64,000 nt of DNA, taken from an uncultured Sphingopyxis sp. (GTDB lineage Bacteria > Pseudomonadota > Alphaproteobacteria > Sphingomonadales > Sphingomonadaceae). Where the stretch lies: NCBI GenBank assembly GCA_966250105.1, contig CBINGC010000015.1, positions 2,496 through 66,495 on the forward strand. Reading direction: 5' to 3'. The translations under genes were made by a program, and so were the position numbers. Of this stretch, positions 26,783 through 39,435 are shown one piece after another (position 1 is the stretch's first letter; each line of letters begins with the position of its first letter). The notes beneath the pieces are model-generated. The model saw only the letters and a list, made by a program, of their open reading frames with translations. It was not told the DNA's origin and searched no databases.

Positions 26783-27736
26783 ATGCGAATGACCGACGGC
26801 ACCACCCAGCAAGCACGCGCCGACGTGGCGGCTTTCCTCGCCTTCCTGAACGCGCAGGAAGGCCCGAAGATGGAGGACATGCCGCCCGAAGGCGCGCGCG
26901 AGATGTTCCGGGCTATGGGCCAGCTCGCCGATGTCCCGCGCGGCGAGATCGCGCATGTCGAGAATCGGACGATCCCGGGACCTGCCGGCGACATCGCCAT
27001 CCGCATCTACGACGATCGTCCGACCCGCGAAGCCGGCCCGGTGATGGTCTTCTATCATGGCGGCGGCTGGGTGATCGGCGACCTCGATACGCATGACCCC
27101 TATTGCGCCGAAGCCGCGCGCCTTCTCGACATGCCGGTGATCGCGGTCGACTATCGCCTGGCCCCCGAACACCCCTTCCCCGCCGCGCCGGAAGATTGCG
27201 AAGCCGCGACGCGCTGGGTCGCCGACAATATTCCGTGCACCGGGCTCGTCCTGTCGGGCGAAAGCGCCGGCGGCAATCTGACGATTGCTACCGCGCTGAC
27301 GCTGCGCGACAAGCCGGCGTCGAAACCGGTGATCGCGATCCATCCCATCTATCCCGCCGTGACCACGCACGACGACTGGCAAAGCTATCGCGATTTCGGC
27401 GAGGGCCATTTGCTGACGCAGGGCGGCATGACCTGGTTCGGCAATCATTACGCCGCCGACCCCGCCGACTATCGCGCATCGCCGCTCGATTTCCCGGCCG
27501 AAGGCCTGCCGCCGACGTTGCTGATCACCGCCGGCCTCGACCCGCTGCGCGATCAGGGGCGCGCCTATGCCGCGAAGCTGATCGGAGCCGGCGTGCCCAC
27601 GACCTACCGGGAGGCGAAGGGCAATATCCACGGCTATATCAACCTGTCGCAGGGCATCCCGAGCGCGCGCGAAGATATTCGCGGTGCATTGACGGTATTG
27701 AAGGCGATCGTCGCCGAAGCTAACGGGGCGCCATGA
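26783..27736 (+). CDS. Alpha/beta hydrolase, hormone-sensitive-lipase-type esterase
   Basis: HGGGW oxyanion motif and the GESAGG nucleophile elbow. Confidence 0.85.
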   Translation: MRMTDGTTQQARADVAAFLAFLNAQEGPKMEDMPPEGAREMFRAMGQLADVPRGEIAHVENRTIPGPAGDIAIRIYDDRPTREAGPVMVFYHGGGWVIGDLDTHDPYCAEAARLLDMPVIAVDYRLAPEHPFPAAPEDCEAATRWVADNIPCTGLVLSGESAGGNLTIATALTLRDKPASKPVIAIHPIYPAVTTHDDWQSYRDFGEGHLLTQGGMTWFGNHYAADPADYRASPLDFPAEGLPPTLLITAGLDPLRDQGRAYAAKLIGAGVPTTYREAKGNIHGYINLSQGIPSAREDIRGALTVLKAIVAEANGAP

Positions 27737-28209
27737 TCGACCATAGTAAACTCCCCTATCGCCCCTGTGCGGGCGTCATGCTCGCCAACCGCGACGGCCG
27801 CGTCTTCGTTGGCCAACGGCTCGATACGACGAGCGAGGCGTGGCAGATGCCGCAGGGCGGAATCGACGATGGTGAGGACGCCGAAACGGCAGCAATCCGC
27901 GAACTCGGCGAGGAAACCGGCGTACATGGCGGGCTGGTCGAGATCATTGCGCGCAGCCGCGAGGAATATTTCTACGACCTGCCCGATCATCTGATCGGCA
28001 AGATGTGGGGCGGCAAATATCGCGGCCAGCGCCAGCACTGGTTCCTGATGCGCTTCATGGGTGAGGATAGCGACGTTAACATCCACACCGATCACCAGGA
28101 ATTTCGCGCCTGGAAGTGGGCCGGACTGAACGAGATCGAGAAACTGATCGTCCCGTTCAAGCGCGTGCTTTACCGCGGACTGGTCGATGAATTCGGGCCG
28201 CTCGTCTGA
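27733..28209 (+). CDS. rppH: RNA pyrophosphohydrolase (Nudix)
   Basis: YRPCAGVMLANRDGRVFVGQR...WQMPQGGIDDGEDAETAAIRELGEETGV Nudix box. ATGA overlap with the esterase stop. Confidence 0.9.
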   Translation: MIDHSKLPYRPCAGVMLANRDGRVFVGQRLDTTSEAWQMPQGGIDDGEDAETAAIRELGEETGVHGGLVEIIARSREEYFYDLPDHLIGKMWGGKYRGQRQHWFLMRFMGEDSDVNIHTDHQEFRAWKWAGLNEIEKLIVPFKRVLYRGLVDEFGPLV

Positions 28210-28859
28210 TTCCGGATCGCGATCGCGGTGCGAAAGACGTCAGCGAACATTTCGGCCGTTAGCCGCCCGGTGTTCGTGTTGTAGCGCGAGCAATGATAGC
28301 TATCGACGAGGCGACGCCCATCAGGCAGCGCGTGGACCGCGCCATGCGCGAAGGGGTGCGCCGCGAGGCGCTCGCCCGCCGCGCGCAGCGCCGCATCATG
28401 CGCGATCCGCCCGAGCGCGATGATCACGCGCACGTTCGGGAGCGCCGCCAGCTGCGTCTCGAAAAATGGCCTGCAATTCGCGATTTCCAGGGGGATCGGC
28501 TTGTTCTGCGGCGGCAGGCATTTGACGCTGTTGACGATAATCGCGCCGTCGAGCCTCAGCCCGTCGTCGATCCGCGCATCATATCGCCCCCGGCTCAGCC
28601 CGAATTGGGCGAGCGTCGCGAACAGCAGGTCACCCGCATAGTCCCCGGTGAACGGCCGCCCCGTCCGGTTCGCCCCATGTTTGCCCGGCGCCAGCCCCGC
28701 GAACGCCAGCCAGGCATCGGGATCGCCGAACGCATGGACCGGGGCATTCCACCAATCGGGATATTCCGCCTGACATTCGCGCCGCAGCGCGACGAGCCGC
28801 GGGCAGCGCGGGCAATCGCGCGGCGGCTCGGTTCCGGGTAACGGGCTACCAATCTCCAT
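28170..28859 (-). CDS. Uracil-DNA glycosylase, family 4/5 (Fe-S type)
   Basis: CPRCPRL Cys cluster and GLAPGKHGANRTGRPFTGDYAG motif. The start is the ATG at 28859 (MEIGSPLPG). The 3' end overlaps the rppH 3' end by 40 nt. Confidence 0.85.
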   Translation of the reverse strand: MEIGSPLPGTEPPRDCPRCPRLVALRRECQAEYPDWWNAPVHAFGDPDAWLAFAGLAPGKHGANRTGRPFTGDYAGDLLFATLAQFGLSRGRYDARIDDGLRLDGAIIVNSVKCLPPQNKPIPLEIANCRPFFETQLAALPNVRVIIALGRIAHDAALRAAGERLAAHPFAHGAVHALPDGRRLVDSYHCSRYNTNTGRLTAEMFADVFRTAIAIRNQTSGPNSSTSPR

Positions 28860-28882
28860 AGGTCTGCGATAGGCGCGGCGGC

Positions 28883-29419
28883 ATGAGCAACGCAATGCCG
28901 ACATCAAGGGAACCCTTGGCCCTCTATGCGATCGGCCTCGGGTCGAACCGCCGCCACGCGCGCTATGGCGATCCGCGCGCGGTGCTGCTCGCGGCGCTCA
29001 CGGCGCTGGAGAGCGACGACATCGAAGCGGTCGATGCGAGTCCGATCATCGCGAGCGATCCGCTCGGGCCCTCGCGCAGGCGCTATGCCAATGCCGTCGC
29101 GCTCGTCGCTTCGCCGCTGAGCCCGCCCGCGATGCTCGAACGCCTACAGGAAATCGAAGCGAGCTTCGGCCGCCGCACCGGCCAACGCTGGAGCGCGCGG
29201 ACGCTCGATCTCGATATCTTGCTCTGGTCGGGCGGCGTCTGGTCCGACGCGACTCTGACGATTCCTCATCCCGCCATGGTCCAGCGCGCCTTCGTGCTCG
29301 GCCCGCTGCGCGCGATCGTCCCCGAATGGCAGCACCCGCTGACCGGACGCAGCATACGTCAACTCGCGGCGCGTCTGACGCGTCCGAAGCCGGTTGACCG
29401 GCGCGCCTCCGCGCACTAG
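28883..29419 (+). CDS. folK: 2-amino-4-hydroxy-6-hydroxymethyldihydropteridine diphosphokinase
   Basis: YAIGLGSN...RWSARTLDLDILLW...TIPHPAMVQRAFVLGPL are HPPK signatures. Confidence 0.85.
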   Translation: MSNAMPTSREPLALYAIGLGSNRRHARYGDPRAVLLAALTALESDDIEAVDASPIIASDPLGPSRRRYANAVALVASPLSPPAMLERLQEIEASFGRRTGQRWSARTLDLDILLWSGGVWSDATLTIPHPAMVQRAFVLGPLRAIVPEWQHPLTGRSIRQLAARLTRPKPVDRRASAH

Positions 29420-29462: not shown

Positions 29463-29538
29463 GGGCCCTTAGCTCAGTCGGTAGAGCAACTGACTTTTAA
29501 TCAGTAGGTCGCTGGTTCGAACCCAGCAGGGCTCACCA
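29463..29538 (+). tRNA. tRNA-Lys (anticodon UUU), CCA encoded
   Basis: GGGCCCTTAGCTCAGTCGGTAGAGCAACTGACTTTTAATCAGTAGGTCGCTGGTTCGAACCCAGCAGGGCTCACCA folds as a cloverleaf with a 7-bp acceptor stem (GGGCCCT/AGGGCTC), anticodon loop CTTTTAA and T-loop TTCGAAC. Confidence 0.95.
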
Positions 29539-29568: not shown

Positions 29569-30216
29569 CTACCAGCGCAGGAAGCGCGGCAGGATCAACC
29601 GTCCGGCAACCGCTGAAAGCAGGACCGCTGTGCCGTGCCAGAGCGCGATATGCACGACGTCATCGCTCGCACAATGGAGCGCGACGATCGTCGCGCCGGC
29701 AGCACCCGCGGCGATACCGATGACCCAGCCCGCGCGCGTCGGCGACGTCGGCGCGCCCGCCCGGAGCCAAAAGAACAGCGCCGCACCGACGCCGAGCCCT
29801 GCCGCTACGCCTTGCAGGAGGCAGCGCAAGCCGAAGCCGTGGCGCGCGGCTTCCATAGCGGCATGGCCGTCGGTGATGCACGCCGCCAGCGCCGCGAGCG
29901 GCAGCGACAGCGAGGCGCCGACCGCCCAGCGCCAGCCGCCATAGTCGCGCCCGACTCCCGGCAATCCCATGCGCAGCGCGCTCCATGTCGCGGCGAGGCC
30001 CGTCGCCGCGGTCAGCCAGAAAGCGAGCATCGATAGCGGCGGCATTCCGCGTGCCGCCAGATCCTGACGTAGCCCGAACAGCAATAACAACGCCGTAGCG
30101 CCCGCCACCCAACCGGCCGCAACCCACATGGACCCGCGCGCAACGCGCCGCGGACGGACGGGCGTCAAGTCCCCGGTCAACTCGTCGATCAAATTGTCGA
30201 TCGATGCGTCCTTCAT
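29569..30216 (-). CDS. nrsF: NrsF-family (DUF1109) membrane anti-sigma-F factor
   Basis: MKDASIDNLIDELTGDLTPVRPRR N-terminus followed by six hydrophobic segments with loop Cys residues. The ATG at 30216 is 1 nt after the sigma-factor stop; the track start at 30231 is a TTG. Confidence 0.8.
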   Translation of the reverse strand: MKDASIDNLIDELTGDLTPVRPRRVARGSMWVAAGWVAGATALLLLFGLRQDLAARGMPPLSMLAFWLTAATGLAATWSALRMGLPGVGRDYGGWRWAVGASLSLPLAALAACITDGHAAMEAARHGFGLRCLLQGVAAGLGVGAALFFWLRAGAPTSPTRAGWVIGIAAGAAGATIVALHCASDDVVHIALWHGTAVLLSAVAGRLILPRFLRW

Positions 30217-30217
30217 C

Positions 30218-30739
30218 TCATTCGCTTTCAATCAGTTCGGCGAGCTTCTTGAGCCCACGATGGATGTTCACCTTGACGAGCGATTCGCTCTGCCCGCAAA
30301 TCTGCGATGCCTCGGCGATCGACGCGCCCTCGATCTTGACCAGCGTGATCGCCTGCGCCTGCTTCGGCGGCAGCAGCGTGAGCAGATGATCGATGCTGAG
30401 CCGTGCATGGACAGCCTCGTCCTCGGCACCGACCGCGGCGTCGTTATCACCCAGTTCGGCCTCGTCGCGCTGGCGGCGCAGCATGTCGATCCAGCGATAG
30501 CGCGCGATCGCAGCGAGCCAAGGCAGGAACGCCCGTCCGCTGTCCCAGGTCGCGAGCTTGCGGTGCATCGACACGAGCGTTTCCTGGACGAGATCGTCGA
30601 TATGGTGCGGCGCGATCCGCCGCGCGAAATAACGTTCGAGCCACTTGCGGCAATCGACGAGCAACGCGCGATAGGCGCTGCGATCCCCCCGCTGCGATGC
30701 GGCCATCAAGCGCGCCAGCGAAGGTTCGTCGATGCTCAT
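30218..30739 (-). CDS. sigF: ECF (group IV) sigma-70 factor, SigF-type
   Basis: Region 2 (DDLVQETLVSMHRKLATWD...FLPWLAAIARYRWIDMLRR) and region 4 (ITLVKIEGASIAEASQICGQSESLVKVNIHRGLKKL). ATGA overlap with the doxX stop. Confidence 0.88.
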   Translation of the reverse strand: MSIDEPSLARLMAASQRGDRSAYRALLVDCRKWLERYFARRIAPHHIDDLVQETLVSMHRKLATWDSGRAFLPWLAAIARYRWIDMLRRQRDEAELGDNDAAVGAEDEAVHARLSIDHLLTLLPPKQAQAITLVKIEGASIAEASQICGQSESLVKVNIHRGLKKLAELIESE

Positions 30740-31197
30740 TTCGCGCGCACCTTAGCAATCAGCGCGTCGAGCGAGAACAGCCCGCCGCCGCGCACGATCA
30801 GGATCGCCGCCATCGCCGCCCACAGCGAGTGGACCGGCCACCAGGCCTCAGGAAAGACGAAAATCTGGATGACGAGCGTCATCACGAGCAGTGCCCCCGC
30901 CGAAAGTCGCGTCGCGAGACCGAATAGCAGCAGCGCGGGAAATAAATGCTCGGAAAAGGTCGTCAGCGGCACTGCGATCGCTGGCTCGAGCGGCAGACCC
31001 GAAAATTCACTGCGGAACAGATCATATTGCGACGGGTCGATCCGCAGGAAACTTCCCTCGACCACCTTTGTTTGCCCCGAGCGCCAAAATACGCCCGCGA
31101 GCGCGACGCGCAGCAGCAACAGCGTAGCGCCCTCGACGAGCCGCGAGCCGGCGATCGCTACGCCCTTGTCATAAAGTCCCGTAATCACATCCATCAC
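30736..31197 (-). CDS. DoxX-family membrane protein (BufD-like)
   Basis: RVALAGVFWRSGQTK...FSEHLFPALLLFGLATRLSAGALLVMTLVIQIFVF is typical of DoxX. The start is GTG 31197 or ATG 31194, directly after the upstream stop. Confidence 0.85.
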   Translation of the reverse strand: MMDVITGLYDKGVAIAGSRLVEGATLLLLRVALAGVFWRSGQTKVVEGSFLRIDPSQYDLFRSEFSGLPLEPAIAVPLTTFSEHLFPALLLFGLATRLSAGALLVMTLVIQIFVFPEAWWPVHSLWAAMAAILIVRGGGLFSLDALIAKVRAK

Positions 31198-31896
31198 TCA
31201 AACCCTCTCGAAAGCTCCGGCCTCGATCAGCCCAGCGATCGCGGTGCCGCCGTCCGGATGCTGTTCGGCGAGATGGGCGATCAGGTTACCAAGCGGCGCG
31301 ATGTCGCCTGCCATGCCGAGCGCCGCCGCGGCGGCAGGCTCGATCGCGAACAGGCGGACATCGGCATCGGGACGCGTGACGAGTAGCGCGCGCGTGTCGG
31401 CCGCAAATGCCGGTTCAACAAGCCGCGCGGCATCGCTGGCGAGCGCGATTGTGCGCGTTGCCGGGTGCCGGCGGACCGCGAGACCGAGCAGGTCAGCTTG
31501 GCTCAGGCTGGCCAGATCGGCGAACGCCAGCGCGCGCGCATCGGCAGCGTGATAACTTTCGAGCCACGCCCATTCTACGCGCGCCATGTCGGCGGCAGAC
31601 TGATCGGCGAGCCAGTCGGCAAAGCTCGCGCCGATGTCGTTCAGCGCGCGCCGCCGCGCGCCGCCTTCCTCGACGAACCGGCGCGACAGCCGGTTGAACT
31701 CCTCCTCGCCCAGATAAACGCGGGTGCGCGGAAACGTCTCTTCGAGCGCGACAAGCCGCGCGTGCGATATGGTGTTGGCATGGATACGAAGCCCGCGCAG
31801 CACGGCAGCCTCCCTTCCTGCGAACAGATCGGCCGGCAGGTGCGCTGGCCCTTGCAGCAAGGTCGCTGCGATAGCCGCCTGTGCCTGCTCAAGCAT
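31198..31896 (-). CDS. bufC: DUF2063-family protein (MNIO partner, BufC-like)
   Basis: 232 aa, sitting immediately 3' of the DUF692 gene with an 8-nt overlap. The N-terminal pattern (LRIHANTISHARLVALEETFPRTR) is typical of DUF2063 ('putative DNA-binding domain') proteins. Confidence 0.78.
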   Translation of the reverse strand: MLEQAQAAIAATLLQGPAHLPADLFAGREAAVLRGLRIHANTISHARLVALEETFPRTRVYLGEEEFNRLSRRFVEEGGARRRALNDIGASFADWLADQSAADMARVEWAWLESYHAADARALAFADLASLSQADLLGLAVRRHPATRTIALASDAARLVEPAFAADTRALLVTRPDADVRLFAIEPAAAAALGMAGDIAPLGNLIAHLAEQHPDGGTAIAGLIEAGAFERV

Positions 31897-32752
31897 GGAC
31901 CGGCGCCCGCAGCAGCGCGTCGGCCTTGGCGGCTTCGGCGATCAGCGTCGCATAGTCGGGAACCGCGCTATCCCATTCGATCAACACGGGCCTTGGCCCC
32001 GACCGGCCCAGAAACAGCGCCAGCAGGTCCCAACAGCTCGCGCGCACCGGTGATCCATGGTCGTCGATCGCCACCAATCCGCCCATATCATCATCCTTGA
32101 CCGCATGGCCCGCGACATGGATTTCGCCGACATGCCGCGGATCGAAGGCATTAATCCAGGCCACCGGATCGAGCCCGAGATTGAAAGCCGAGACCTCGAC
32201 ATTGTTGATATCGAGCAGCAGGCCGCAGCCGCTGCGCCGGCAAAGCTCGTGCAGGAAATCAACCTCGCCCCAATCGTCGCCCGCGTAAGCGAGGTAGCGC
32301 GAAGGATTTTCGATCAGCATCGGCCGAAGTAGCCGGTCCTGAACGCGGCCGACCTCGCCCGTAAAATGATCGAGTGCGGCATGGCTATAAGGGGTCGGCA
32401 AGAGATCCGGAAACTTGTCGTCGGGCCCGTTGCTCCAACTGAGGTGATCGGAAACCATCGCAGGATTATAACGACGGCAAAGCGCCGCGAGCGCGTCGAG
32501 TTCGTCGCGATCGACGCCCGCCGCCGATCCCAGCGACAGCCCGACTGAATGAAAGCTCAGCGGCAGTTGCTCCGCGATCGCGGTCAGCCAGCGATGCGGC
32601 GGCCCGCCCGCGCCGAAATAATTCTGGGGGTGGACTTCGGCCCAGGCGGGCGCCGTCCCCTGCTCCGCCGCCGCCAGCACATCGGCATAATGCTGCGGCT
32701 TGAGCCCGATGCCGGCGCGTGCGGGCAGCGGCGAACGCAGGGAAGCGGTCAC
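31889..32752 (-). CDS. bufB: DUF692 / MNIO (multinuclear non-heme iron oxidative) enzyme, BufB-like
   Basis: GIGLKPQHYADVL...AWAEVHPQNYFGAGGPPHRWL...LSFHSVGLSLGS...VSDHLSW...LIENPSRYL...GEIHVAGH is the TIM-barrel DUF692 signature. GTG start at 32752. Confidence 0.88.
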   Translation of the reverse strand: MTASLRSPLPARAGIGLKPQHYADVLAAAEQGTAPAWAEVHPQNYFGAGGPPHRWLTAIAEQLPLSFHSVGLSLGSAAGVDRDELDALAALCRRYNPAMVSDHLSWSNGPDDKFPDLLPTPYSHAALDHFTGEVGRVQDRLLRPMLIENPSRYLAYAGDDWGEVDFLHELCRRSGCGLLLDINNVEVSAFNLGLDPVAWINAFDPRHVGEIHVAGHAVKDDDMGGLVAIDDHGSPVRASCWDLLALFLGRSGPRPVLIEWDSAVPDYATLIAEAAKADALLRAPVHA

Positions 32753-32758
32753 GCCTCG

Positions 32759-33055
32759 TCAGCCCTTCTTGGCGACGGGCTTGGCATTGCCTTTGTGCGC
32801 GGTCAGTGTGCCGCCCATCTTGACGCAGCTGCCGGCGGGCACATGCTTCCAGGCATTGCCCTGATAATCGACGGTCGATGTCCCGGCGCAGCTCGTGCCC
32901 GGCCCGGCGGCGCAGTCATTTTTTCCCTTGAGCGAAACGCCGTAGCATTTTTCCTTGGCGCCCTCGGCGGCGACCGCGGTGCCGCCGATCGCGGTGCCGG
33001 CGGCCATGGCAAGAACGGCCGAAGCGGCGAGCGACAGTTTCAGTGCATTGGTCAT
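32759..33055 (-). CDS. bufA: DUF2282-type secreted Cys-containing RiPP precursor (bufferin-like, BufA1 type)
   Basis: 98 aa. Sec signal [29 protein letters not shown]|AEG. The core has four Cys in the typical contexts EKCYGV, KNDCAAG, TSCAG and GSCVK. It lies directly upstream of the DUF692 and DUF2063 genes. Confidence 0.85.
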
Positions 33056-33108
33056 GGATAATCTCCCTTTGAGAAAATGGACGATGCGGAGGATGGCATC
33101 GTCACCAG

Positions 33109-33134
33109 TTCGCGGGGGAAGGTGGGAAAGTTAC
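33109..33134 (-). promoter_or_regulatory. Candidate sigma-F (ECF) promoter GTAACT-N16-CGAA upstream of bufA
   Basis: The minus strand reads GTAACTttcccaccttcccccgCGAA, with a spacer of exactly 16 nt. The CGAA ends 53 nt upstream of the bufA ATG. This matches the GTAACC-N16-CGAA consensus I recall for Caulobacter sigma-F. Confidence 0.55.
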
Positions 33135-33224: not shown

Positions 33225-34241
33225 ATGAATATTCTGCTGACAGGCGGCGCCGGCTATATCGGCAGCCACGTCGCCGCGCCGCTGGTGTCGGCCGGGCACC
33301 GCGTCATCTGCTTCGACAATCTGTCTAACAGCGATCCCGCCGTCATGGACCGGCTCGAGGCGATCACCGGCCATGTTGTTCCGCTCGTCACCGGTGACAT
33401 CCGTGATGGCGACGCGCTGCGCAGGGTGATGCAAGACCATGCGATCGAGGCCGTGATCCACTTCGCAGGGCTGAAGGCGGTCGGCGAATCGGTCGCCGAG
33501 CCGATGAAATATTACGACAACAACGTCCGCGGCACCCTTTCGCTGCTCGAAGCGATGGCCGATTGCGGGACCAAGACGCTCGTCTTCTCGTCAAGCGCCA
33601 CTGTCTATGGCCAGCCGCGATATCTGCCGCTCGACGAGAGTCACCCCACGTCGGCGACCAATCCCTATGGTCGCACGAAGCTGATGATCGAGGAAATGCT
33701 CGCCGACGTCGCCGCCGCCGATCCCGAATGGCGCATTGCGATTTTGCGCTATTTCAACCCCGTCGGCGCGCACGACAGCGGGCTGATCGGCGAGAATCCC
33801 AACGGCATTCCGAACAATCTGATGCCTTTCGTCAGCCGCGTCGCCGCCGGGCGGCTTGCCGAACTGTCGGTGTTCGGCGACGATTACGGCACGCCCGACG
33901 GCACCGGGGTGCGCGATTATATCCACGTCGTCGATCTCGCCGAGGGCCATGTCGCCGCGCTCGGCGCCATCGCAAAGAGCGAAGAACCGCTGGCAATCTG
34001 GAACCTCGGCACCGGTCAGGGCTATTCGGTGCTCGACATGGTCAAGGCGTTCGAACGCGTGAATGGCGTGAGCATCCCCTATCGCATCGCACCGCGCCGC
34101 GATGGCGATGTCGCAAGCTGCTTCGCCAGTCCCGAGCGCGCGGCGCGCGAGCTCGGTTGGAAGGCCGAGCGCGGTCTCGAGGCAATGTGCGCGTCGAGCT
34201 GGAACTTCGAGCGCACGCTCGCCGGGCGCAATTCGGACTAA
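33225..34241 (+). CDS. galE: UDP-glucose 4-epimerase
   Basis: MNILLTGGAGYIGSH...SSSATVYG...YGRTKLMIEEML...YFNPVGAH is canonical GalE. Confidence 0.93.
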   Translation: MNILLTGGAGYIGSHVAAPLVSAGHRVICFDNLSNSDPAVMDRLEAITGHVVPLVTGDIRDGDALRRVMQDHAIEAVIHFAGLKAVGESVAEPMKYYDNNVRGTLSLLEAMADCGTKTLVFSSSATVYGQPRYLPLDESHPTSATNPYGRTKLMIEEMLADVAAADPEWRIAILRYFNPVGAHDSGLIGENPNGIPNNLMPFVSRVAAGRLAELSVFGDDYGTPDGTGVRDYIHVVDLAEGHVAALGAIAKSEEPLAIWNLGTGQGYSVLDMVKAFERVNGVSIPYRIAPRRDGDVASCFASPERAARELGWKAERGLEAMCASSWNFERTLAGRNSD

Positions 34242-34810
34242 CCGATCCAGCCCGCGGTCTGGGCGAGCACCCACAGGCCGATCACGAGAAACAGGCCGGC
34301 GGCAACGACGCGGAATTTCGCGAGATCGACACGCTTCAGCAGCTCATTTCCGAGGAAGATCGCCGGCACATTGGCGATCATCATCCCGAGCGTCGTGCCC
34401 GCGGTGACCGCGACGACATCGTGATATTGGGCGCCCAGCGCGATCGTCGCCACCTGCGTCTTGTCGCCCATCTCGACGAGGAAAAAGGCGATGAGTGTCG
34501 TCAGGAACGCCCCGAAGCGCGGCTTCGGCGCGTCGTCGTCGTCGAACTTGTCGGGGACCAGCGCCCACGCCGCCATCGCGATGAACGAAGCGCCGATCGC
34601 ATAGCGGAAGACCGGGCTGTCGAGAAAGGCCGCCGCCGACGCGCCGAGCAGCGCCGCGAGCGTATGGTTGGCGAGCGTCGCAACCAATATGCCTAAAATG
34701 ATCGGCAGCGGCCGCCTGAAACGCGCCGCGAGCAGGATCGCGAGCAGCTGCGTCTTGTCGCCGATCTCGGCGAGCGCGACGACCGCGGTCGAGGTGAACA
34801 GGGCTTCCAT
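34238..34810 (-). CDS. UPF0016 (GDT1/TMEM165) family cation (Mn2+/Ca2+) transporter
   Basis: Two E-x-G-D-K-T/S motifs (EIGDKTQ and EMGDKTQ). The start is the ATG at 34810 (MEALFTSTAVVALAEIGDKTQ). Confidence 0.85.
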   Translation of the reverse strand: MEALFTSTAVVALAEIGDKTQLLAILLAARFRRPLPIILGILVATLANHTLAALLGASAAAFLDSPVFRYAIGASFIAMAAWALVPDKFDDDDAPKPRFGAFLTTLIAFFLVEMGDKTQVATIALGAQYHDVVAVTAGTTLGMMIANVPAIFLGNELLKRVDLAKFRVVAAGLFLVIGLWVLAQTAGWIG

Positions 34811-35000
34811 GATGACTCCGGGGCCGGGCGGCAAGCGATTCCAATAGACATCGGACCCGCCGCCCGGCCTGGACGAAGGTCGATGCCATTGGTCTCGCCC
34901 AAGCGGTGCTCCCGCTTCCACCGCACCATGACCTCTCGGCCAAGTATGTTGACGCGGCGGCCCGTCCCGAAGGACGGCTGGCTACTCCCCAGATGACGCG
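34811..35000 (-). ncRNA. yybP-ykoY-like Mn2+ riboswitch leader (aptamer ~34885..34998 plus an expression-platform hairpin)
   Basis: The minus strand reads GGGGAGTAGCC, then hairpin CCGTCC-TTCG-GGACGG, then CGCCGC, then GTCAAC (L3-like), then hairpin TGGCC-GAGA-GGTCA, then GCGGTG (pairs with CGCCGC), then hairpin AAGCGG-GAGCA-CCGCTT, then GGCGAGACC. An 11-bp stem GGCCGGGCGGC/GCCGCCCGGCC (34859..34869 / 34822..34832) follows and abuts the GGAG Shine-Dalgarno. The outermost P1.1 pairing is weak. Confidence 0.6.
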
Positions 35001-35203
35001 GGCGGGTTAGACGGCTTGGCCTCGGCTTGCAAGCCCTTCGACGCCGCCGCGGCCGCCTTTTCGGACTCCGCAATGTCGGCATCCATCGCCTTGGCGCGTG
35101 CCTCGATTTCCTTCGCCGCCTTGTCGTAGCGCGTATCGAAGTCAGGCTCGTCCTTGCAGGCCGCGAGCATCAGTATCGGCACAAGCAGAAGACCGGCGCG
35201 CAT
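34982..35203 (-). CDS. Small (73-aa) lipoprotein translationally coupled to tamB
   Basis: MRAGLLLVPILMLAAC has a lipobox and is followed by a charged, Ala/Lys/Glu-rich helix. The ATG at 35203 overlaps the tamB stop (TGATG). Confidence 0.6.
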   Translation of the reverse strand: MRAGLLLVPILMLAACKDEPDFDTRYDKAAKEIEARAKAMDADIAESEKAAAAASKGLQAEAKPSNPPASSGE

Positions 35204-38200
35204 CAATAATCCTTGCGGTACCGAATGCTGAGGTTCGACTGCCCCGAGCCGCCCGCTTGGCTGAGCAGCGACAGCGCCCGGGTCAGGCTGATTTCGAGCT
35301 GAGTTGCGGTATAACCGCGCGCGTCGGTGATGACCTCAAGATAGATGTCCTTGGTGATATATTGGCCGGCGGCGAGCGCCGCCCCGCGCCCGACGGTATC
35401 GTCGGGTCCGAGCACGCGCAGCCGGTCGATTCCCGTCGCCGACTGAAGCGCGCCGAGCGGGCTCAGCCCCCCACCACCGCTACTCAGCGTGTTGAGCGAC
35501 GAAGCGAGCTGAACCGCCTGCAGCGGCGACAGCGTGGTAATCGAATCGCCGAACAGGATGCGCGAGACGATCTCGTCCTGCGGCAGACCGGGAACGCTCG
35601 AGAAGGCGACCTGCGGATTGCTCGCACGCCCCGTCACGCTGACAGTGACCGTCACCGTTTCGATCGTGTCATCTGCGATCAGGCGGATCGCGGGATCGAA
35701 CGCATCGCCGGTCGGGAAGGTCACCCTCCCTTCCTTAAGCTCGAATGAGCGACCCGCAAAGCCGAGCGTGCCGCGCACCAGTTCGATCTCGCCGGTCACC
35801 TGCGGCGCCTGCGTCGTTCCGCGGAGCACGATATCGGCGCTCCATTCGGATTCGAGCCCCATGCCCGAGACGTATATCTCGTCGGGCGCCTTCAGCGCGA
35901 TGTCGAGGCGGATGAGGTCGAACAGGCTGCCGCCGACCGCCGCGAGCCCGTCGCCGCTGATCCTCTGGCGCCCGGCGGGGGGTTTGCGCCGCACGCCGGT
36001 CAGAACCGGCACCTGCGCCGCGCCCTCGCGTACGATGCGATAGCGCGTTTCAGGAAGGCGAAGGCTGCCCGAGAGCAAGGCGGTTTGTCCCGCAACCTTT
36101 TCGAGTGTCAAATTGCCCGTCGCGCGCGCGGCGATGTTCTCGCTGCGCGCAAGCCGCGCGTTGTCGAGCGTCGCCGCGATGTTCATCGGATAACCGTCGG
36201 CCGAAGCGAGGCTGACGAAACCCTTCGCCTGTACCGTGCCGTCGCCGGCCTTCGCGGTCAGCTGCTCTATCTCCAGCCGGTTGCCCGTGAAACGGCCGTT
36301 CACGACGATATTCGTCAGCTTGGTGCCATAAGTCTGGTTCTCATACGTCATATCCTTGCCGCGCACCACGCCCTCCAGGCAGGGGTCGGCGACGCTGCAA
36401 CTGAAATCGGCGGCGACCGCGACCGGACCCGCGACGTGCTGATCGGCGGGACCGAAGAAAGAATAGAGCGTGTCGGCGGGGCCATTGTAGCGAATGCCGC
36501 CGCCGAGCGGCGCTGCCATCAGCCGCTCGGTCCAACTGCCCGCGCCGGCACCGAGCGGGCGCAGCGACGCCTGCACCCGGCCGATGACGCTGCCGCGCTT
36601 GCGCATCACCGCCCGCGCCTCGCCGCCGTCGGCCAGCAGCTTGCCGGCGAAATTGACGTCGACCGGCTGGCTCACCGATGCGGCGGTCGTGCGCGTGAAG
36701 CCGGTGATCGTCAGCCGCGCGTCGGCACGGGGAAAGCTCTCGGAATTCGCCTGTTCGAAATCGAGACTGCCCGTCGCGCGGCCGCCCAGCCCCATGTCGG
36801 GATAGATGGCGTTGAGGATCGCCATGTTGACGCGCTCGAGCCGGCTTTGGATCATGATGCCATCACCGAAGCGACCCGCGACACGCGCGCTGCTGCCGCG
36901 GCCGAGATTGACCGTCGTCGGCAGCAATTCATATCCGTCGGCGCCGGGAATGATGCGCGCGGGCGTGGTAGTACGAAAATTGATGCCGGTCGCCCGCCCT
37001 TGCACCGACGCGCGCCACAGCTCGGGCGTCAGGTCGGCGTTCGCGGCGATGCGAAACGGCACCCCGCTCGTTCCCTCGACCAGCGCCTGCGCCTTGCCGC
37101 GGCCATCGCGATAGTCGATCTTCACCCGTCCGACGGCGATATCATATTCGCGGATTTGCGTGTCGGCGATCTGGATGTCGGCGACGATATGCGGCTGGTC
37201 ATAGAGAGTGACGTCGGCATCGACGATCGCCGAGCCGACCGCGAGTTGCGCCGGGCCGGGCAGCACGACATCGTTTGCGCGGATATTGATCGCCGCCGTC
37301 TGATATTCGCCAGCGGCGCCCAGCCGGACGAGCCCGCCCAACCCCTGTCCCGACGCGTTGAGCTGGCCGGTGAACGGCCCGGCCTCGCTCTGCACGAGCC
37401 GGCCGTTGAACCCGATGCCCGCCAGGTCGCCGCGTTCGACGTCGATCGTCAACGGCCCCGCCGCCATCAGCAGCACGACGTCGGCCGACAGCGGCCCATA
37501 GTCGGTGTCGCCCGTCGCCGCGAGGCGGTAGCCGTTCGGCGCGCCATTGATCCGCGCGACGAGATTGGCGAGCCCGATGCCGAGCCCCGGTCGCTCGGCA
37601 GTCACCACCGCACGCGGGTCGCTGATCGTCCCGGCAAGCTGGACGCCGATCGGACCATAATCGGTCGAGTTCGCGCGCGCGGTCAGCCGGATCTGACCGT
37701 TCGGCGCATAGCTCCCCTGCCCGCCAGTGATGCGCAGGCGCGGTGCCGACAGACGGAGGCTGGAGAAGCGGATCATACCGTCGGTGCCGTAACGTACCGC
37801 GCTCGACGCGGTCGCATTGCCGCCGAGGAAATCGCGAACTCCCGAATTGAATAATCGCGTCGAGCGCGCGCGGACATTGCCAACGATCTCAAACCCGCCG
37901 CGCGGCGCGGTCTTCAGGTCCGCATCGGTGTCGATGTCGAAGATGCCGACGCTTTCGATGCGGTAATCGTTGATCCGCCCGTCGATCGCACCGGTATAAA
38001 AACCCTTGTTGAGATCGGCGATGACGATCGCCTTCGCGTCGATACGCGGTGAACGCAGCCGCAGATTATCGCTGAGGATGCGGCCGTCCGCATAAGCGAG
38101 ATCGCCGTCGAGGCGGACCTGCACGAGAGTCCCGCCCGCGACGGTGTCGAGCCCGCGAATCCGCGCTGCGCGCCCCGCGACCGGAATGACGATCTGGTCG

Positions 38201-39435
38201 GCATCGACGCGCGCTTTGCCCGCGAGGCTCAGCCCCTCGACGACAATGTCGTTGACCGCCAGGCTGCTCGCATTCGCCTGATAATCGACCGTCGGCAGCG
38301 CGAATTCGCCGTCGAGCGTCGCGGTCGCGCGCAGACCGCTCGCGCGCACGGCCGGCGCGATCGCGCCCGGGCGCAGAATATTGGCCGCGAGTTTCAACCC
38401 GTCGAACCGGTTGGCGCCAAGGTCGAGCCCGCCGCTGATCCCGAGCTGCGCCGCGTCCGACGAAAGCCGGCCGTCGACCGCCGCCTTGCGCTCCTGCAGC
38501 CGTGCCGTGAGGTCGATCGCGGTTTCGGCCCCCAGCAACTCAGCCGCGGGGCCGGTCAGCAGCCGCGAAGCCTGCGCCGTTCCTTTGGCAGCGAAGGTTC
38601 CGTCCCGCCCCGTCAGCGCGACGCGCGCAAGCGGCGCAGTGCCGAGATTCGCGGTCAGATTGCCGTTCCACGCCTTCCAGTCGCCGCGCCCGGCGAGCTT
38701 CGCGGTCAGCACTTCCTCGAACCCGCCCATCGCGGCGATCACGCCGCCCTGGGGCGCGGTCAGGTCGAGCGCGACCGTCAGCCGGTTCGCCTCGGGCACC
38801 GCATCGAGTACGAGCTTCAGCGCATCGCCCTGCCCGCCGCCGCCGCTGATCGTCTCGGCGTTGGCGCTGACCTGCGCGCGGCGATCGGCGATCGCGACCT
38901 TGCCGCTGAGCGTCGCTACCTGCCGCTCGCCGGCCACCGCGGGCTCGAAGACGAAGCGGTCGACGCGGAGCAGTCCGACATCGATATCGAGGTCGGGCAG
39001 CAGCGGCTCGCCCGTATCGGGCACCGCCTTGAACGCCGGGACCTTCTCCATCACCAGCGTCTTCGCCGTCGCCGACCTGACATCGATATGGTTCGCAAAA
39101 TAGCGGATCGGCCGCCAATCAACACGAAGCTCGGGCGAGCGCAGGAAAACGCCCTTCGGATCGGACAGGGTGAAATCGCTAACGATCATCTCGCCATAGA
39201 GCGAGCCGTCGAGCCGGCCGATGCCGACCTTCATCCCGTTTTCGAATTCATATTTCTCGATCTGGGTGACGACGAAGCGCCGTCCGGCATCGCTGTTGAG
39301 CCCAATAAGGAACAGCGCAAAGAGCAGGACGAGCCCTAGCAGGGCGAGCCCGACCCAGCGCAGGATCGTGAGCAGCCACGACCGCGGCTCTTCCGGCGCA
39401 GCGTCGTCGGGGGCGAAAGGCGCCTCCCCGGCCAT
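35203..39435 (-). CDS. tamB: Translocation and assembly module subunit TamB (DUF490 / AsmA-like), 1410 aa
   Basis: N-terminal TM anchor (WLLTILRWVGLALLGLVLLFALFLIGL), a very long beta-rich body and a C-terminal DUF490-like segment (...GQYITKDIYLEVITDARGYTATQLEISLTRALSLLSQAG). It lies immediately downstream of tamA with a 1-nt overlap. Confidence 0.9.
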   Translation of the reverse strand: MAGEAPFAPDDAAPEEPRSWLLTILRWVGLALLGLVLLFALFLIGLNSDAGRRFVVTQIEKYEFENGMKVGIGRLDGSLYGEMIVSDFTLSDPKGVFLRSPELRVDWRPIRYFANHIDVRSATAKTLVMEKVPAFKAVPDTGEPLLPDLDIDVGLLRVDRFVFEPAVAGERQVATLSGKVAIADRRAQVSANAETISGGGGQGDALKLVLDAVPEANRLTVALDLTAPQGGVIAAMGGFEEVLTAKLAGRGDWKAWNGNLTANLGTAPLARVALTGRDGTFAAKGTAQASRLLTGPAAELLGAETAIDLTARLQERKAAVDGRLSSDAAQLGISGGLDLGANRFDGLKLAANILRPGAIAPAVRASGLRATATLDGEFALPTVDYQANASSLAVNDIVVEGLSLAGKARVDADQIVIPVAGRAARIRGLDTVAGGTLVQVRLDGDLAYADGRILSDNLRLRSPRIDAKAIVIADLNKGFYTGAIDGRINDYRIESVGIFDIDTDADLKTAPRGGFEIVGNVRARSTRLFNSGVRDFLGGNATASSAVRYGTDGMIRFSSLRLSAPRLRITGGQGSYAPNGQIRLTARANSTDYGPIGVQLAGTISDPRAVVTAERPGLGIGLANLVARINGAPNGYRLAATGDTDYGPLSADVVLLMAAGPLTIDVERGDLAGIGFNGRLVQSEAGPFTGQLNASGQGLGGLVRLGAAGEYQTAAINIRANDVVLPGPAQLAVGSAIVDADVTLYDQPHIVADIQIADTQIREYDIAVGRVKIDYRDGRGKAQALVEGTSGVPFRIAANADLTPELWRASVQGRATGINFRTTTPARIIPGADGYELLPTTVNLGRGSSARVAGRFGDGIMIQSRLERVNMAILNAIYPDMGLGGRATGSLDFEQANSESFPRADARLTITGFTRTTAASVSQPVDVNFAGKLLADGGEARAVMRKRGSVIGRVQASLRPLGAGAGSWTERLMAAPLGGGIRYNGPADTLYSFFGPADQHVAGPVAVAADFSCSVADPCLEGVVRGKDMTYENQTYGTKLTNIVVNGRFTGNRLEIEQLTAKAGDGTVQAKGFVSLASADGYPMNIAATLDNARLARSENIAARATGNLTLEKVAGQTALLSGSLRLPETRYRIVREGAAQVPVLTGVRRKPPAGRQRISGDGLAAVGGSLFDLIRLDIALKAPDEIYVSGMGLESEWSADIVLRGTTQAPQVTGEIELVRGTLGFAGRSFELKEGRVTFPTGDAFDPAIRLIADDTIETVTVTVSVTGRASNPQVAFSSVPGLPQDEIVSRILFGDSITTLSPLQAVQLASSLNTLSSGGGGLSPLGALQSATGIDRLRVLGPDDTVGRGAALAAGQYITKDIYLEVITDARGYTATQLEISLTRALSLLSQAGGSGQSNLSIRYRKDY

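Follow-up and report, generated by a model that had tools for sequence, protein, structure and literature searches.

We analysed a 64,000-nucleotide stretch of DNA from an uncultured Sphingopyxis sp. (contig CBINGC010000015.1 of assembly GCA_966250105.1; hereafter the window), in which six co-directional minus-strand genes had been read, in a preliminary description made from the sequence alone, as a bufferin operon fused to the genes of its own sigma factor and anti-sigma factor. Sequence comparisons support an assignment of this locus to the Buf1-type bufferin clusters (bufABCD), joined to a sigma/NrsF pair of the ECF16 type (ECF, extracytoplasmic function). Inside bufC lies a second conserved promoter motif, P2, which most probably represents the autoregulatory promoter of sigF after a move into that gene; the cluster would then probably consist of two nested sigma-F-dependent transcription units, not one. 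The genes and predicted elements are the following.

33109..33134, minus strand: P1, predicted ECF16/sigma-F-type promoter GTAACT-N16-CGAA (motif match and positional conservation)
33080..33103, minus strand: conserved 5' leader hairpin, GACGATGC-CATCCTCC-GCATCGTC, then CATTTTCTC (fold and conservation)
32759..33055, minus strand: bufA, Buf1-type bufferin precursor, 98 aa (Pfam DUF2282, PF10048)
31889..32752, minus strand: bufB, MNIO (DUF692) bufferin maturase (Pfam MbnB_TglH_ChrH; NCBIfam MNIO_BufB)
31198..31896, minus strand: bufC, MNIO partner protein (Pfam DUF2063)
31264..31289, minus strand: P2, predicted internal ECF16/sigma-F-type promoter GTAACC-N16-CGAA (motif and synonymous-site constraint)
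30736..31197, minus strand: doxX (bufD), DoxX-family membrane protein (Pfam DoxX, DoxD)
30218..30739, minus strand: sigF, ECF sigma factor, 173 aa (Pfam Sigma70_r2, Sigma70_r4_2, Sigma70_ECF)
29569..30216, minus strand: nrsF, DUF1109/NrsF membrane anti-sigma factor (Pfam NrsF)

All six genes were found in the list of open reading frames (ORFs), with the coordinates and junctions that the preliminary description had given. The bufA stop and the GTG start of bufB are separated by 6 nt with a GAGG Shine-Dalgarno sequence inside, bufB and bufC overlap by 8 nt (ATGCTTGA), the doxX GTG directly abuts the bufC stop, the sigF start overlaps the doxX end as ATGA, and a single base lies between the sigF stop and the nrsF ATG. 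The true doxX start may be the ATG at 31194 instead of the GTG at 31197, because homologue alignments of doxX start at residue 2; for nrsF, homologue alignments back the ATG at 30216 against a longer TTG-initiated ORF from 30231. A terminator scan revealed no internal terminator above chance across the six-gene block, and the tight coupling of the genes suggests co-transcription.

We then scanned the whole window for the ECF16 motif GTAAC-N17-CGAA, which gave exactly two matches against 0.17 expected, both at this locus and on the minus (coding) strand. The upstream match, P1, lies ~50 nt upstream of the bufA ATG, so that the sigma-F-type promoter proposed in front of the operon is indeed present as a motif; it fits both the Caulobacter consensus GTAACC-N16-CGAA (PMC3511200) and the form (T/C)GTAAC-N17-CGAA (PMC8315932). 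The downstream match, P2, falls within the 3'-terminal part of bufC (88 nt ahead of its stop codon and ~67 nt upstream of doxX) and agrees perfectly with the Caulobacter consensus. Homologous loci were collected by a BufB-based scan limited to one genome per species (52 loci, onto which the six window proteins were mapped) and by a BufB-profile scan of metagenome contigs (80 loci, mostly 43-52% identical to the query, annotated with hidden Markov models (HMMs) built here). P1 was present in essentially all Sphingopyxis loci, with the motif start ~74-79 nt from the ATG, invariant hexamers and a hypervariable spacer, and P2 was found at the same place in nearly all of them; the positions of both motifs are held across ~45 species. 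The description of a single unit with a promoter in front is thus borne out for P1 and the tight coupling, but it missed the conserved P2 inside bufC.

The bases of P2 are conserved at positions where the BufC protein leaves them free. GT was kept in 46/46 loci at an xGT codon that encodes Gly, or twice Ser as AGT, although GGT accounts for only 12.7% of Gly codons; the adjoining AAC codon (52% of Asn codons) and the GAA codon (55% of Glu codons) were likewise kept in 46/46 loci, as was the third-position C before GAA, across Ala, Asp, Gly and Ile codons (GCC, 36% of Ala codons). Conserved Ala, Leu and Gly codons beside the motif occur in three to five synonymous forms each, and over the six genes an invariant third base was seen in 27 of 660 conserved degenerate codons (4.1%). 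The amino-acid changes at P2 (Gly to Ser; Ala to Asp, Gly or Ile) leave the motif bases intact. We rejected codon bias or protein constraint as the cause of this conservation on the codon data: GGT is a minority Gly codon, and neighbouring conserved codons vary freely.

The motif also follows the gene downstream of it, being present inside bufC in 46 of the 51 loci with an in-line sigF and in 2 of 53 others, both of them truncated Sphingopyxis contigs. At one Sphingopyxis locus (L043:3517-3543) the P2 equivalent has an 18-nt spacer, and its -35 element is read as GTA-ACC (Val-Thr), a codon phase other than the GGT-AAC of the remaining Sphingopyxis loci. In a metagenome-assembled genome (MAG) of the Sphingomonadales (L046:4582-7131), GTAACC-N16-CGAA stands in the 3' end of bufC, directly upstream of sigF, in a non-homologous protein context. 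Separately, a Sphingopyxis MAG carries a third GTAAC-N17-CGAA match (L039:8271-8296) on the same strand, ~110 nt past the end of nrsF, which could represent another target of SigF.

Directly after the predicted P1 start, the transcript would begin with the leader hairpin, which has an 8-bp stem and scored as terminator-like in the scan. Its stem and loop are nearly invariant across ~40 Sphingopyxis loci, the loop holds a CCUCC-like sequence, and a short U-rich run stands 3' of the stem. More distant bufA leaders have a hairpin of unrelated sequence at the same place, and 15 of 20 fold better than shuffled controls (z < -1). A covariation test on the hairpin was uninformative, since the stem is invariant within the genus, and an Rfam search matched no family to the leader or to anything else in the locus except the neighbouring tRNA. 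The hairpin could be a stabiliser, an attenuator, a mask of the ribosome-binding site or an operator.

The protein assignments were investigated with profile HMMs, as the preliminary description had proposed for its six named families, and all six passed the Pfam cut-offs. BufB matched Pfam MbnB_TglH_ChrH (formerly DUF692) with an E value of 4.2e-90 and the NCBIfam MNIO_BufB equivalog with 323 bits, above the curated cut-off of 310; it also matches solved DUF692/MbnB structures, and its His, Glu, Asp and Asn positions are invariant in the alignment (A1). The closest BufB matches, from S. italica DSM 25229 and one Sphingopyxis MAG, are 90% identical. BufC matched Pfam DUF2063 over residues 5-96 (55.4 bits, cut-off 27.2, E 7.9e-15) and NCBIfam HvfC weakly, below its cut-off; bufC lies directly 3' of bufB in all loci compared, here in strict bufABC order. 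DoxX shows hydrophobic segments and matches to Pfam DoxX (2.9e-15) and DoxD (7e-07). Together with the precursor, this gene content is that of a Buf1-type bufABCD set, in agreement with the earlier reading of the first four genes as a bufferin operon.

BufA matched Pfam DUF2282 with 85.2 bits (cut-off 22.4, E 2.9e-24). Its four cysteines, in exactly the contexts previously quoted, are Cys37, Cys48, Cys56 and Cys77; they are invariant in 66/66 aligned homologues, with a CysII-CysIII spacing of 8 residues. The N-terminus could be a Sec-type signal peptide, to judge from Lys6, the hydrophobic segment spanning residues 5-29 and the AVA/VAA motifs. The cleavage previously placed at AVA|AEG does give a 69-aa core, but it is not unique, as VAA|EG (68 aa) fits the -3/-1 rule equally; the monoisotopic mass predicted for the modified product is accordingly 6766.24 Da with the 68-aa core and 6837.27 Da with the 69-aa core. 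No solved structure was detectable by sequence for BufA or BufC. Sphingopyxis solisilvae has a second DUF2282 paralogue (L007:3550-3825), 57% identical to BufA, ~1.1 kb upstream of its main bufA on the same strand.

SigF consists of sigma regions 2 and 4 only (Sigma70_r2 and Sigma70_r4_2 within 173 aa), and its protein is 82-100% conserved across Sphingopyxis. Its best matches among the NCBIfam sigma models fell below the cut-offs, and it is classified as a putative ECF16-type factor from its NrsF partner gene and from the promoter motif of the ECF16 kind. NrsF matched Pfam NrsF over the full model (positions 1-204 of 204; 134 bits, E 7.1e-39) and scored 47.6 bits with the narrow NCBIfam NrsF equivalog, under its cut-off of 300. 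The protein has five or six hydrophobic segments, and two cysteines are conserved among homologues, Cys132 in 57/57 and Cys182 in 53/57. These correspond, matched by published numbering, to the functional C131/C181 of Caulobacter NrsF (PMC3511200), and also to C129/C179 of the Brucella anti-sigma factor (PMC8315932).

The order bufA-bufB-bufC-doxX-sigF-nrsF was found in every sufficiently long Sphingopyxis locus (~45) and in two loci from other Sphingomonadales (L045, L048); L046 has bufABC followed by sigF with no doxX gene, and in four alphaproteobacterial loci at a greater distance (L049-L052), bufABCD is not accompanied by sigF or nrsF within 5 kb. A search with the NrsF protein returned close Sphingopyxis relatives only, too narrow a set for the broad survey of gene context. 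Among 35 classifiable metagenome loci, sigF was divergent in 13, co-directional and downstream in 6, and absent within the flanks in 16. Most divergent-type loci have back-to-back motifs in the intergenic region, an equivalent two-promoter layout. Two of the 6 co-directional loci are from Sphingopyxis; the other 4 have doxX-sigF gaps of 96-300 nt, and in these gaps, all outside the Sphingomonadales, no sigma-F motif was found at ≤1 mismatch. The in-line order is a minority yet recurrent arrangement, on the counts of 4 non-Sphingopyxis in-line against 13 divergent loci, and its tight, overlapping version is characteristic of the Sphingomonadales. The placement of effector and regulator genes was correctly described as in-line and tight, but the in-line order extends beyond this genome: it is shared throughout the genus and is seen outside the Sphingomonadales as well.

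In Caulobacter, CC3252 (nrsF) and CC3253 (sigF) adjoin CC3254-CC3257, which encode the DUF2282, DUF692, DUF2063 and DoxX proteins; these genes are organised as two transcription units, and a GTAACC-N16-CGAA promoter precedes each of them (Kohler et al. 2012, PMC3511200). CC3254-CC3257 correspond to CCNA_03363-03366, the buf1 genes, with sigF-nrsF in their vicinity (Leprevost et al. 2024, PMC11626156). The statement in the preliminary description that sigF-nrsF is a separate locus in Caulobacter is hence mistaken. Caulobacter buf1 and the Sphingopyxis block share the six families, the bufA-bufB-bufC-doxX order, the promoter consensus and an adjacent regulator pair, as well as a four-Cys DUF2282 precursor and the two conserved NrsF cysteines; a Sec signal and a mature peptide of ~68 residues, as in Caulobacter, are predicted for the Sphingopyxis precursor. 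They differ in that sigF-nrsF stands apart from bufABCD transcriptionally in Caulobacter, whereas in Sphingopyxis it follows doxX on the same strand, the stop and start codons overlapping, and the autoregulatory promoter of the sigF type seems to have been shifted into bufC, upstream of doxX. The gene numbering and the 'sigF-CC3252' operon order in the Caulobacter sources imply, though only indirectly, that sigF-nrsF and bufABCD are divergent.

Two other characterised systems are similar. In S. meliloti, the ECF16 sigma/anti-sigma pair rpoE7-ecfR7 controls an adjacent four-gene unit, SMb20530-SMb20527, that includes DUF692, DUF2063 and a fourth conserved hypothetical gene, and whose conserved membrane protein is probably the DUF2282 precursor; there are two TGTAAC-N17-CGAA promoters, which is a further likeness, but the pair is divergent from this unit and was not induced by the stresses tested (PMC6180224). 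Cupriavidus metallidurans has the bufferin-type gigPABT genes, with a role in copper resistance, beside the ECF16 pair rpoQ-rsqA; that pair is on the opposite strand (divergent) and no ECF16 motif precedes gig, whereas a canonical motif precedes bufA here (PMC13492112). A survey of ~14,000 MNIO genes, in the part of it available, lists genes for sigma-70 r2/r4_2 and NrsF proteins as components of Buf1, not Buf2, clusters, with NrsF within five genes of 12% of the MNIO genes and DUF2282 co-occurring with 39% (Antoine et al. 2025, PMC12452194); the same part contains no description of orientation, promoters, embedded promoters or tight coupling.

We investigated the surroundings of the block as well. 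The neighbouring genes are housekeeping genes (galE, GDT1, TamB, folK, UDG, NUDIX) and base composition is unremarkable, on which grounds a metal-resistance island or mobile element was rejected. Within Sphingopyxis the intact six-gene block occurs in at least two genomic neighbourhoods (flanks of L001-L048 compared with window positions 33225-39435 and 26783-29419): ~8 loci share the galE/GDT1/TamB side of the window, and ~30 have a flavoprotein gene and a DEAD-box helicase gene upstream and a gene for a 236-aa secreted protein downstream. That the block stays intact in different neighbourhoods suggests that it has been relocated as a unit, and fits the earlier notion of a self-contained module. 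A gene for a GDT1/UPF0016-family divalent cation/proton antiporter (34238-34807, minus strand), ~1.2 kb upstream of the block and on the far side of the divergent galE, is the sole further metal-related gene in the vicinity; no sigma-F motif precedes it. At the other end, a tRNA-Lys(UUU) gene (29463-29538, plus strand) converges on the nrsF stop across a 30-nt gap with no recognisable terminator between them, a junction seen only in the closest relatives (L018, L020, L040).

Taken together, we consider it likely that the locus is a Buf1 cluster with an in-line SigF/NrsF pair, Caulobacter-like chemistry and two SigF-type promoters, forming a portable six-gene module. In Caulobacter, BufB and BufC are both required and form 5-thiooxazoles on CysII and CysIII, a disulfide joins CysI and CysIV, and the Sec-exported Buf1 product has a very high affinity for both Cu(I) and Cu(II) (PMC11626156). 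By analogy, BufB and BufC would convert Cys48 and Cys56 of the Sphingopyxis precursor into 5-thiooxazoles, the outer pair, Cys37 and Cys77, would form a disulfide, and the Sec signal would export the 68/69-aa product to the periplasm, where it would sequester excess copper. NrsF, on the Caulobacter model, would keep SigF membrane-bound until the two conserved NrsF cysteines are hit by a metal or a thiol-reactive signal. P1 would drive the biosynthetic genes and probably read through the whole block, and P2, in the last 90 nt of bufC, would drive doxX-sigF-nrsF. P2 would be a moved sigF promoter, whose counterpart stands upstream of sigF in Caulobacter and in the intergenic region between the divergent units in S. 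meliloti and in the divergent metagenome loci. Feedback in the module would be positive through sigF and negative through nrsF, which is produced along with it.

Alternatively, the six genes could form a single operon transcribed from P1 only, with the motif inside bufC not a functional promoter. All junctions are overlapping or ≤6 nt, no internal terminator stands above chance, and L045 and L048 keep the tight in-line order with no P2-like motif; however, P2 is invariant at four synonymous or free positions in all 46 loci against the 4.1% background, its bases survive amino-acid changes and a different codon phase, and bufC lacks the motif where sigF is not in-line downstream, so that we judge a P1-only operon unlikely. 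Retention of the motif for a reason other than initiation (for example as a signal in the RNA, as a binding site of a different protein, or through selection on the BufC peptide together with local codon bias) would accord with its overlap with a conserved BufC segment, LGNLIAxLAE. This appears highly improbable, given the minority Gly codon and the free variation of other conserved codons in that segment; moreover, the bases retained coincide exactly with the two ECF16 promoter elements at canonical spacing, and the motif is found where a sigF gene lies downstream. A further possibility concerns the signal: the module may be as we describe, with a cue or role that is not mainly copper but oxidative, chlorine or thiol-reactive stress or other metals, and with a peptide that may bind a different metal. 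The Caulobacter ECF16 system responds to dichromate and cadmium (PMC3511200), the ECF16 cues are HOCl in Brucella and reactive oxygen species in Bradyrhizobium (PMC8315932), S. meliloti rpoE7 is not induced by H2O2, Cd or chromate (PMC6180224), and MerC-bufferin fusions suggest other metals, in the available part of the MNIO survey (PMC12452194). In Caulobacter, on the other hand, Cu induces buf1 and buf2 and Fe, Zn and Mn do not, and Buf1 binds Cu(I)/Cu(II) very tightly (PMC11626156); the four cysteines and the CysII-CysIII spacing are conserved here. A role mainly outside copper seems to us rather unlikely.

The two-promoter copper module that we favour has several points weighing against it. 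The tight in-line order occurs in L045 and L048 with no P2-like motif at ≤1 mismatch, so P2 is not required for the gene order and read-through from P1 can evidently suffice in some lineages. The supplements of the S. granuli TFA transcriptome hold no entries for these families and no start sites, and a sigma-70 promoter scan found no sites, although a further basal promoter would be needed if P1 and P2 are both purely SigF-dependent. RpoQ dependence of gig was not demonstrable in C. metallidurans (PMC13492112), so adjacency of a sigma factor gene to such a cluster is no guarantee of control. Metal specificity and modification chemistry, finally, are extrapolated from the Caulobacter protein.

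The placement of P2 bears on DoxX, which is dispensable in Caulobacter for bufferin modification and copper protection (PMC11626156). As P2 puts doxX in the regulator unit (doxX-sigF-nrsF) and not in the biosynthetic unit, DoxX could contribute to the sensing or the resetting of the circuit, for instance as a membrane redox partner of the two periplasm-facing NrsF cysteines, with the leader hairpin after P1 adding post-initiation control on the biosynthetic genes; we offer this as a speculative and rather improbable extension.

The components, chemistry, regulator and association of regulator and cluster are all published, and the locus is no new kind of system. The association of effector and regulator is not new, since sigma factor and NrsF genes already figure in Buf1 clusters in the available part of the MNIO survey (PMC12452194); only the co-directional downstream placement of sigF-nrsF differs from the characterised models. 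The novelty claimed for the locus was overstated: the system is known, and what is particular to the lineage is the layout of the operon, with a predicted promoter embedded in it. As such it presents a natural variant of architecture, in which an ECF sigma/anti-sigma pair is translationally coupled to its own effector operon within a compact, portable six-gene metal-stress module. The putative autoregulatory promoter in a coding sequence, under dual protein and promoter constraint, would be a clean case for the study of promoters inside genes, and P2 may give a cheap handle on the unexplained role of DoxX in bufferin clusters.

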